Shown here: piece by piece, positions 35,334 through 36,269 of the stretch | Numbering within the stretch: position 1 is the first letter of the stretch | How the letters are laid out: each line of letters opens with the position of its first letter | DNA from: an uncultured Pseudohongiella sp. | Lineage (GTDB): Bacteria; Pseudomonadota; Gammaproteobacteria; Pseudomonadales; Pseudohongiellaceae | DNA length: 64,000 nucleotides | Direction: 5' to 3' | Assembly: GCA_964352355.1 (NCBI GenBank) | Contig: CAYGRT010000013.1 | Location: forward strand, 6,828 to 70,827 | Notes under the pieces: model-generated | Seen by the model: only the letters and a program-made list of their open reading frames with translations | What the model was told of the DNA's origin: nothing | Databases searched by the model: none | Position numbers and translations under genes: made by a program

Positions 35334-36269
35334 ATGCCAATGCTCAATGTCTGGTTTAATCCATTGTTTTCAGTGTGTTCCAAGCATTTCCCCGTAGCCC
35401 TAGCTTTCAGTCTATGCCTTTCGTCACTTGCTAACGGGCAAGACAACGCTGAAGGACGTTATCGCCCAGAGGGCCGACAGATCGCGATGGCTGCCTCGCA
35501 AGAATTTGGTGAACGTCTATTCGAAGTGCGTACTTATGACCCTCAACCGGAGGTAGCTGAGTTTGCCGGCGGCACGATTTTTTATCCCTTAACTCTGAGC
35601 TTTGATGCACCCGTTGGCTTAATCGTCTTTGTACCGGGTTTTCGCGCCACCCAAAGCGTCTACGACTGGTGGGGACCAGCCCTGGCCTCTTTCGGCTATG
35701 CCGTTATGATAATCGATACCAATACCCCCACCGAATCGCAGGCCGGTAGAAAGCAAGCCGCGATCGCTGCAATTAATTTTTTAAAGGCAGAAAACAGCAA
35801 GCAAGGTAGTCCTCTACTGGGCAAATTGGATACTGAAAAAGTAGCGCTCATGGGACACAGCATGGGCGGCGGGGCTGTCTTGCAAGCCGCTGCACAATTG
35901 GCTGCCGAAGTGGATGCCGTGATTCCCTTGTCACTATATTGCTGCGAACCTGGGCAAAGTTTTAGCGGTGACTTTTCCCAACTGAGCGTTCCCACTCTCT
36001 TATTCGCCAGCAGTGAAGACACCGTCGCGCCGCCAGCGGAACATGCCAAGCTATTGTTTGACTCCATTAATAATAGTGCTGCCAAGGCCTATGTGGAATT
36101 TGCCACTGGAGATCATATGATTGCTGCCAATGGGGGGCCAGATCTCAGCACCTTGGGACGATTAAGTCTAGCGTGGTTGAAAGTGCACATGGAAGACAAA
36201 ACCAATCTAGTTAGATTTATTGCCAACGATGACAGTAAATTTTCTCACTTTGAATCTACTCTAGACTAA
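35334..36269 (+). CDS. Secreted cutinase/PETase-like polyester hydrolase (dienelactone-hydrolase-type alpha/beta fold)
   Basis: Signal peptide. The block GGTIFYP...[33 protein letters not shown] parallels IsPETase/cutinase GTVYYP...[32 protein letters not shown] (recalled from memory). Candidate triad: Ser176 in GHSMGGG, Asp229 in SEDTVAP, His261 in TGDHMIA. Confidence 0.75.
   Translation: [311 protein letters not shown]

Follow-up and report, generated by a model that had tools for sequence, protein, structure and literature searches.

A 64,000-nucleotide stretch of contig CAYGRT010000013.1 from an uncultured Pseudohongiella sp., here called the window, carries a gene for a PETase-like serine hydrolase (Table 1). 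The protein belongs to a discrete and so far uncharacterised clade that is restricted to mostly marine gammaproteobacteria of the Pseudohongiellaceae/OM182 type. All analysed members of this clade carry two adjacent cysteines inserted beside the residue equivalent to the substrate-clamping Trp185 of IsPETase, and in many of their genomes the gene lies next to those for a c-type cytochrome and an alcohol dehydrogenase (ADH) dependent on pyrroloquinoline quinone (PQQ). The reading favoured here, which is considered somewhat probable, is that the protein is an exported carboxylesterase with a PETase fold from an uncharacterised marine clade, carrying a vicinal disulfide at its clamp and releasing from esters the alcohol used by the PQQ-ADH and cytochrome c.

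An earlier note on this DNA had proposed that the protein belongs to the PETase/cutinase-like family, and profile, sequence and structure support this. The Pfam PETase profile PF12740 matched with 180.4 bits (cutoff 28, E = 5.8e-53), residues 61-302 corresponding to positions 23-249 of 263, and generic alpha/beta-hydrolase profiles scored far below this value. In a search of the PDB, PE-H (6sbn) was found at E = 1.4e-44 and LipIAF5-2 at 6.6e-44, with IsPETase variants, Ple628 and Ple629 extending to 1e-42. Pairwise identity is 36-37.5% to PE-H and LipIAF5-2, 33% to IsPETase and 31-32% to LCC and TfCut2; the IsPETase, LCC and TfCut2 sequences in the alignments were checked against the PDB matches and close database relatives. 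The structure model suggested as a check, an AlphaFold 2 (AF2) model built on 58 clade sequences, has a mean predicted local distance difference test (pLDDT) score of 90.9, with 87-91 in the blocks of the Cys-Cys loop. Foldseek superposed it on IsPETase entries with template modelling (TM) scores of 0.87-0.88 (target-normalised), root-mean-square deviations of 2.2-2.6 A and E of about 1e-29.

Other family assignments were rejected. A best match to dienelactone hydrolases (DLH) had been named beforehand as grounds for abandoning the assignment, but the DLH profile PF01738 matched no more than residues 164-254, at 21.5 bits, whereas PF12740 reached 180 bits; thus, the PETase-family assignment stands. 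The nucleophile of classical DLH is a cysteine, and that of the hydrolase is a serine. The BHET hydrolase BdeA (NF051441), the only related NCBIfam equivalog, scored 142.5 bits against a cutoff of 520, and chlorophyllase was ruled out on profile scores. The term polyester hydrolase, by which the protein was previously described, is best regarded as a family label rather than a demonstrated activity.

The catalytic apparatus is intact. Residues were mapped with a phmmer alignment to the IsPETase variant 6ky5 (full-length numbering) and a 164-sequence MAFFT alignment, and the reading frame and every residue named in the earlier note lie in the sequence where that note had placed them. The segment of residues 80-130, described as nearly gap-free against the IsPETase core, contains one gap of two residues. 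Ser176, Asp229 and His261 align with S160, D206 and H237 of IsPETase and are invariant in the clade, in line with the triad given in the earlier note, and the oxyanion hole would be formed by the backbone of Phe103 and Met177. Further equivalences, with IsPETase given first, are Y87 to F103, W159 to H175 (the histidine preceding the catalytic serine that had been pointed out before), M161 to M177, W185 to Y202, C203 to S226, S214 to H237, I218 to L241, S238 to M262, C239 to I263 and C273 to A297; C289 has no counterpart. Histidine at the Ser214 position is the state of cutinases and PE-H, packing against the aromatic clamp. Since this histidine is invariant in the clade, Tyr202 is probably, to judge by IsPETase, fixed in position and does not 'wobble'. 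The post-His loop is as long as in type II enzymes (IsPETase, PE-H), exceeding that of LCC and TfCut2 by three residues, and the protein has a WWGP motif, as proteobacterial PETases do.

The clade was delimited by two surveys. A word-indexed protein search yielded 337 relatives at E <= 1e-10, and the best 120 clusters, which were analysed further, are 52-100% identical and 301-334 aa long, all with the Cys pair at the same place. A genome scan, using one genome per species, yielded 110 loci confirmed by tblastn; 80 of these were kept and, with the window contig, make up the 81 loci referred to below. All 80 come from metagenome-assembled or single-cell genomes labelled Pseudohongiellaceae, Pseudohongiella, OM182, Pseudomonadales or unclassified Gammaproteobacteria, and the source habitats are mostly marine, with a few lakes and estuaries. 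An exhaustive search of 50%-identity representatives returned one full-length clade sequence (383 bits) plus fragments, the next match being at 173 bits and 42% identity. The nearest relative without the pair, P0124, is on a 1.8-kb contig, too short to give information on its gene context.

In a neighbour-joining tree, with the Cys-Cys-bearing fragments P0121 and P0122 counted in the clade, 193 of 200 bootstraps recovered the clade as monophyletic. Its stem measures 0.34, compared with a median internal branch of 0.037. The clade stands apart from the groups of LCC/TfCut2, PE-H/LipIAF5-2 and IsPETase, and the tree resolved no sister group. The hydrolase had been called an outlying member of the family. 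This is correct in that the clade is separate and long-stemmed, but the protein is no lone sequence, being one of a large clade with an invariant Cys pair. Source annotations of clade members range over dienelactone hydrolase, triacylglycerol lipase, pimeloyl-ACP methyl ester carboxylesterase and hypothetical protein, and a search of the literature for the clade, or for PETase-like enzymes of Pseudohongiella or OM182, found nothing relevant and no characterised member.

The motif that defines the clade lies at the substrate clamp. MAFFT places Cys203 and Cys204 as a two-residue insertion right after Tyr202, adjoining the position of IsPETase Asp186, and the loop from the aromatic residue (position 185) to the next strand (position 203) has 23 residues, compared with 16-18 in the reference enzymes. 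The earlier observation that the Trp loop is replaced by a segment with adjacent cysteines was therefore accurate. Y-C-C is invariant in 120 of 120 protein clusters (the best of the longer list) and in 81 of 81 genome loci, the usual motif being Y-C-C-E-P/L-G; the pair persists down to about 51% identity, and Glu205 after it is likewise invariant. No Cys-Cys occurs at this position in the best 150 representatives outside the clade. Among the PDB relatives no solved structure has the longer loop, theirs being 6-7 residues shorter, and a literature search for a vicinal Cys pair in PETases, cutinases or polyester hydrolases turned up nothing relevant.

The protein is predicted to be exported through a classical Sec signal peptide, and the same holds for the clade as a whole, in agreement with the export signal claimed earlier. 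All 58 aligned members have an n-region, a hydrophobic core and an A-x-A/Q-D end (the slash marks the end of the signal peptide), which in the window protein reads S-L-A-N-G/Q-D-N, and no lipobox was found in the N-termini of the clade. At the mature N-terminus Q36, R42, Y43, P45, G47 and R48 are invariant in the clade alignment. Because Cys15 and Cys28 fall inside the signal peptide, Cys203 and Cys204 are the sole cysteines of the mature protein. Exactly two cysteines are present in the mature part at 80 of 81 loci, and none of the 120 clusters has another conserved cysteine, extra ones being confined to signal peptides.

Because the pair supplies essentially the only cysteines of a mature protein that appears to be exported, Cys203 and Cys204 likely form a vicinal disulfide. 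The two marks of proteins with vicinal Cys-Cys pairs, conserved adjacent cysteines and export, are both found at the level of sequence. Vicinal disulfides are rare and often located at ligand sites or in redox switches, the PQQ alcohol and methanol dehydrogenases being an example. In the methanol and ethanol dehydrogenases, as in the hydrolase, the adjacent cysteines lie at the ligand site of an exported enzyme, but the dehydrogenases are beta-propellers without homology to the hydrolase, and the likeness is one of analogy only; their disulfide packs on PQQ and has a role in electron transfer. In the hydrolase, the eight-membered ring of Cys203-Cys204 would stiffen or shape one wall of subsite I, replacing the two conventional disulfides, which are missing from the clade.

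Several other departures from IsPETase are not peculiar to the clade. As an outside comparison set, the 143 best non-clade representatives were taken, one per 50%-identity cluster. Most of them (84/143) have phenylalanine at the Tyr87 position, as does PE-H. The phenylalanine noted earlier as a difference is indeed present (F103), but it does not distinguish the protein, about half of the clade having tyrosine. Histidine likewise predominates at the Trp159 position (83/143), and tyrosine at the Trp185 position was seen in 21 of 143. The reported absence of both PETase-type disulfides was confirmed by the alignment; this too is common in the wider family, where 35 of 143 representatives have the active-site pair and 50 of 143 both C-terminal cysteines. 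Judged from these alignments, the phenylalanine, the histidine and the missing disulfides are ordinary family-wide, and the Cys-Cys is not.

The earlier note had called for placement among the PETase types. The typing criteria, for type I those of Joo et al. (2018) cited by PMC12442448, were applied, and the hydrolase fits none of types I, IIa, IIb or III. The closest sequences, PE-H (6sbn/6scd, type IIa) from Halopseudomonas (Pseudomonas) aestusnigri and the metagenomic LipIAF5-2 (7ecb), also come from marine proteobacteria and share the fold, the triad, WWGP, histidine at the Ser214 position and the extended post-His loop, PE-H sharing in addition the phenylalanine at the Tyr87 position. In contrast, their positions 159 and 185 are both Trp, and 203, 239 and 273 (the disulfide positions covered by the aligned fragments) are Cys, whereas the hydrolase has His175, Tyr202, none of these cysteines, the Cys-Cys insertion and a post-clamp loop 5-7 residues longer. 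IsPETase from Ideonella sakaiensis (type IIb), the best structural match, shares the triad, the Met161 equivalent and the post-His loop length, but differs at Trp159 (His), Trp185 (Tyr), Ser214 (His), Ile218 (Leu) and Ser238 (Met) and has the C203-C239 and C273-C289 disulfides, both absent here. Type II enzymes have two disulfides and a Trp185/Trp159 clamp, where the clade has none of the former and an invariant Y202 and H175. The type I enzymes LCC and TfCut2 resemble the hydrolase in having histidine at the Trp159 and Ser214 positions and no active-site disulfide; unlike it, they possess the C-terminal disulfide, keep Trp at 185, carry WLG in place of WWGP and have a post-His loop three residues shorter, the extended loop being foreign to type I. 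The type III PETases (HaloPETase1, PmC, dsPETase05) are likewise marine, PETase-related, outside types I and II and without an active-site disulfide; they have G-H-S-Q-G, no pi-stacking clamp and the disulfides C64-C126 and C273-C276 (PMC12442448). Assignment to type III was rejected, as the hydrolase has G-H-S-M-G, an aromatic clamp residue (Tyr) and the vicinal Cys pair only. By sequence, the hydrolase is best described as a member of a distinct clade with an inserted Tyr-Cys-Cys-Glu at the substrate clamp.

The gene neighbourhood provides the second line of evidence. Divergent from the hydrolase gene lie the genes for a dihaem c-type cytochrome and a 554-aa PQQ-ADH of the methanol/ethanol family, followed by that for a 680-aa soluble PQQ dehydrogenase. 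The best PDB match of the 554-aa enzyme is PedH (6zcv), and it has a D-Y-D lanthanide-type motif (D-x-D shared with PedH) and a Cys pair of its own, RVCCGANNRG aligning with RPCCDVINRG of PedH; thus, both divergent genes encode exported enzymes with adjacent cysteines. We know of no PETase-family esterase described in a ped cluster. PedH of Pseudomonas putida is a lanthanide-dependent PQQ alcohol dehydrogenase, and in the ped system (PedE/PedH) an exported PQQ dehydrogenase is likewise combined with a c-type cytochrome (PMC5487730). The 680-aa enzyme resembles the membrane-bound glucose/quinate/shikimate family but is without its N-terminal membrane part, and its orthologues are 74-95% identical, more conserved than the hydrolase.

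Physical linkage was found across divergent genomes. The cytochrome c gene and the 554-aa PQQ-ADH gene are directly upstream and divergent at 39 of 81 loci, with a median gap of about 190 bp, and a PQQ dehydrogenase lies within 6 kb of the hydrolase at about 55 of 81. Orthologues of the 554-aa enzyme are present at 41 of 81 loci, and those of the 680-aa enzyme within 6 kb on either side at 42 of 81. At six loci the 680-aa PQQ dehydrogenase gene is directly upstream instead, and at about ten the PQQ genes are downstream, giving three architectures in total. The junction of cytochrome c and hydrolase is kept with at least seven different downstream neighbours, including GT2 and GT9 glycosyltransferases, a TonB-dependent receptor, a beta-lactamase-family protein and, in the window, a glutaredoxin. 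That the linkage survives these rearrangements argues for a functional connection between the hydrolase and the PQQ module.

The gene order suggests a module leading from ester to alcohol to oxidation. In this module the enzyme would act on esters outside the cytoplasm, the alcohol set free would be the substrate of the neighbouring lanthanide-type PQQ-ADH, and the electrons would pass to the adjacent dihaem cytochrome c. Several points weigh against it. All loci belong to one bacterial family, so that inherited gene order is a partial explanation of the linkage. At about 17 loci the 6-kb flanks are complete yet contain no PQQ gene, the remaining loci being too short to judge. The hydrolase gene and the cytochrome/PQQ-ADH genes are divergent and not co-transcribed, and no genes for an aldehyde dehydrogenase, PQQ biosynthesis or a transporter were found within about 10 kb in the window. 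A search of the literature found no activity data for members of the clade.

The remaining features of the locus are listed in Table 1. The hydrolase gene starts with ATG, preceded at 8-9 nt by an AGAGG Shine-Dalgarno sequence, and its base composition is native, GC being 0.47-0.53 across the flanks, so that there is no sign of recent acquisition. Upstream lies a candidate extended -10-like element, TTTGTTATATT. Of 30 orthologous intergenic regions, 13 contain the related 8-mer TGCTATAT and 9 the related 8-mer TGTTATAT, and close variants of the form TG(C/T)TATAT are found in about two thirds of these 30; a generic promoter scan did not call the element. An antisense ORF at 35696..36085 was rejected as a gene, having no support of its own and being a shadow of the hydrolase gene. 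Antisense ORFs over this gene cluster across loci because the gene itself is conserved, and several other 'conserved' ORF clusters in the neighbourhood set are similar antisense shadows of real genes and were ignored.

Some neighbours are shared by fewer loci. At 11 loci an exported protein of the beta-lactamase family (PF00144) is encoded convergently, 23-154 bp downstream of the hydrolase (among them L079:6882-8228); it may be a second esterase-type enzyme. Beyond the PQQ genes of the window, a second alpha/beta hydrolase and an adjoining PF09859 protein form a pair kept in only 1-4 related loci, and the 177-aa ORF on their near side is about 83% identical in six related loci. The 908-aa ORF, about 1.8 kb downstream of the hydrolase, is kept in only one related locus. 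A membrane-anchored DsbA/thioredoxin-like protein with CPAC is encoded about 1.5 kb upstream of the hydrolase at 13 loci (among them L076:3729-4439), and locus L076 itself has no PQQ gene within 6 kb. This gene could have a part in oxidising the Cys pair or may reflect mere synteny. Glutaredoxin 3, directly downstream in the window, was rejected as a partner of the pair, being cytoplasmic and recurring at a single other locus; it is probably unrelated to the cysteines.

Table 1. Features of the hydrolase gene and its surroundings in the window.
Feature	Position	Strand	Evidence or remark
PF09859 'Oxygenase-NA' protein	27995..28687	-	adjoins second alpha/beta hydrolase, beyond PQQ genes
Second alpha/beta hydrolase, 308 aa	28702..29628	-	Hydrolase_4/Abhydrolase_1; weak PETase-profile match
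177-aa ORF between PQQ genes and second hydrolase	29802..30335	-	no Pfam/NCBIfam match
Soluble PQQ dehydrogenase, 680 aa, glucose/quinate/shikimate-like	30455..32497	-	277 bits vs family cutoff 833
PQQ alcohol dehydrogenase, methanol/ethanol family, PedH-like, 554 aa	32679..34343	-	TIGR03075, 553 bits, cutoff 480
Dihaem c-type cytochrome (CALCH, CADCH), divergent from hydrolase	34343..35206	-	with probable true start, 34343..35116
TTTGTTATATT, extended -10-like element (TGnTATATT), 61 nt 5' of hydrolase start codon	35262..35272	+	weak
PETase-like serine hydrolase, coding sequence, 311 aa, stop included	35334..36269	+	ORF list, translation, PF12740, PDB matches, AF2, Foldseek
Predicted Sec signal peptide, residues 1-35 (SLANG/QDN), with Cys15 and Cys28	35334..35438	+	inferred from alignment
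Phe103, oxyanion-hole position (IsPETase Tyr87)	35640..35642	+	clade: F 30/58, Y 28/58
Nucleophile elbow G-H-S-M-G; catalytic Ser176 at 35859-35861	35853..35867	+	H175 and S176 invariant, 58/58
Y202-C203-C204-E205-P206-G207, clade-defining; putative vicinal disulfide Cys203-Cys204 at 35940-35945	35937..35954	+	alignment
Catalytic Asp229	36018..36020	+	alignment; invariant in clade
His237 (IsPETase Ser214 position)	36042..36044	+	invariant in clade; also His in LCC, TfCut2, PE-H
Catalytic His261	36114..36116	+	alignment; invariant in clade
Glutaredoxin 3, directly downstream of hydrolase	36395..36649	+	common to one other locus only
908-aa ORF, sensor histidine kinase-like with C-terminal receiver	38094..40820	-	translation judged by eye

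Among other explanations, the one that survives best, possible though clearly less probable than the ester-to-alcohol module, is the one put forward in the earlier note, a stand-alone secreted depolymerase of polyesters (cutin-like, polycaprolactone, poly(butylene adipate-co-terephthalate) or poly(ethylene terephthalate), PET), with the PQQ neighbours reduced to inherited gene order. All of the closest characterised relatives are polyester or PET hydrolases, the protein combines the type-II-length post-His loop with the WWGP of proteobacterial PETases, an aromatic residue is kept at the clamp, and 17 loci are without PQQ neighbours. However, identity to proven polyesterases is only 31-37%, Trp185 is replaced and the adjoining loop remodelled in every member, and the adjacency to cytochrome c and PQQ genes persists through at least seven downstream contexts and three architectures. 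Membership of PF12740 alone does not predict PET activity. Hydrolysis of PET or other polyesters by the hydrolase is possible.

A somewhat unlikely alternative concerns the cysteines, which instead of a static disulfide would be a redox switch opening and closing the substrate loop, a free thiol pair or a metal ligand. In an exported protein with two adjacent cysteines a disulfide is the default, given Dsb-mediated folding, and no metal-binding motif is evident. Nor are the neighbours of thioredoxin fold consistently linked, the glutaredoxin recurring at a single other locus. On the other hand, the pair adjoins the substrate-binding aromatic residue and is followed by the invariant Glu205, the neighbouring genes encode redox proteins, a DsbA-like gene lies about 1.5 kb off at 13 loci and a glutaredoxin gene directly downstream in the window, and the strained vicinal disulfides of other proteins serve as redox switches, as in RexT (PMC8960804) and von Willebrand factor (PMC5834005).

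A bolder version of the favoured reading, put forward tentatively and regarded as unlikely in this full form, would make the clade a fourth PETase-like structural class, in which a strained vicinal disulfide, placed right behind the aromatic clamp residue, is built into the substrate surface, maybe as a redox gate, and the enzyme takes the first step of a conserved ester/alcohol/lanthanide module outside the cytoplasm in the abundant marine OM182/Pseudohongiellaceae.

It is improbable that the order of the reactions is reversed, with the hydrolase acting after the dehydrogenases to open a lactone or to cleave a beta-diketone or hemiacetal-derived ester, following the logic of the polyvinyl alcohol (PVA) pathway. 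The second PQQ dehydrogenase resembles the glucose/quinate family, the products of which include lactones, and some clade members are annotated as dienelactone hydrolases in their sources, but the DLH profile reached its 21.5 bits over a partial region. PVA hydrolase acts after the dehydrogenase and is of another alpha/beta-hydrolase family; the present hydrolase belongs to PF12740, and no protein of the type of oxidised-PVA hydrolase or polyhydroxybutyrate depolymerase was among the 60 PDB matches listed. A precedent for the arrangement itself exists. A PQQ dehydrogenase, a haem c protein and a serine hydrolase are clustered here, and the PVA pathway relies on a PQQ-dependent PVA dehydrogenase together with a haem c site and a hydrolase of oxidised PVA. 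In Pseudomonas sp. VM15C, pvaB (hydrolase) is in an operon with pvaA (PQQ dehydrogenase), a serine hydrolase gene being linked there too to a dehydrogenase gene (PMC11644497). The 554-aa enzyme, however, is an ethanol-type ADH, the usual products of which are aldehydes and acids (PMC5487730).

A chance ORF or an inactive pseudo-enzyme is hardly conceivable, since the triad and elbow are invariant, E-values are 1e-44 to 1e-53, more than 100 orthologues have conserved length, base composition is native (GC 0.47-0.53) and the antisense ORF has no support of its own; no point in its favour was found.

PETase-like genes in ocean metagenomes are often tallied as 'plastic-degrading potential', and their natural substrates are largely not known. 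In more than 100 species-level genomes of a common group of marine bacteria, the present clade combines an intact catalytic apparatus, a remodelled clamp (Tyr and the invariant Cys-Cys) and a recurrent link to PQQ-ADH and cytochrome genes. Together these three features lead to a testable hypothesis of a natural role, the release of alcohol from esters for periplasmic oxidation. The vicinal disulfide beside the Trp185 position, if real, would show a new natural means of stabilising or shaping this loop, of use in enzyme engineering; several engineered IsPETase variants deposited in the PDB carry a mutation (D186H) at the adjoining Asp186 position. In marine surveys, calling a PF12740 match a PETase requires biochemical evidence. 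If the reading as a fourth class at the head of an ester/alcohol/lanthanide module is true, it would give the 'PETase-like' genes of the ocean a concrete natural function.

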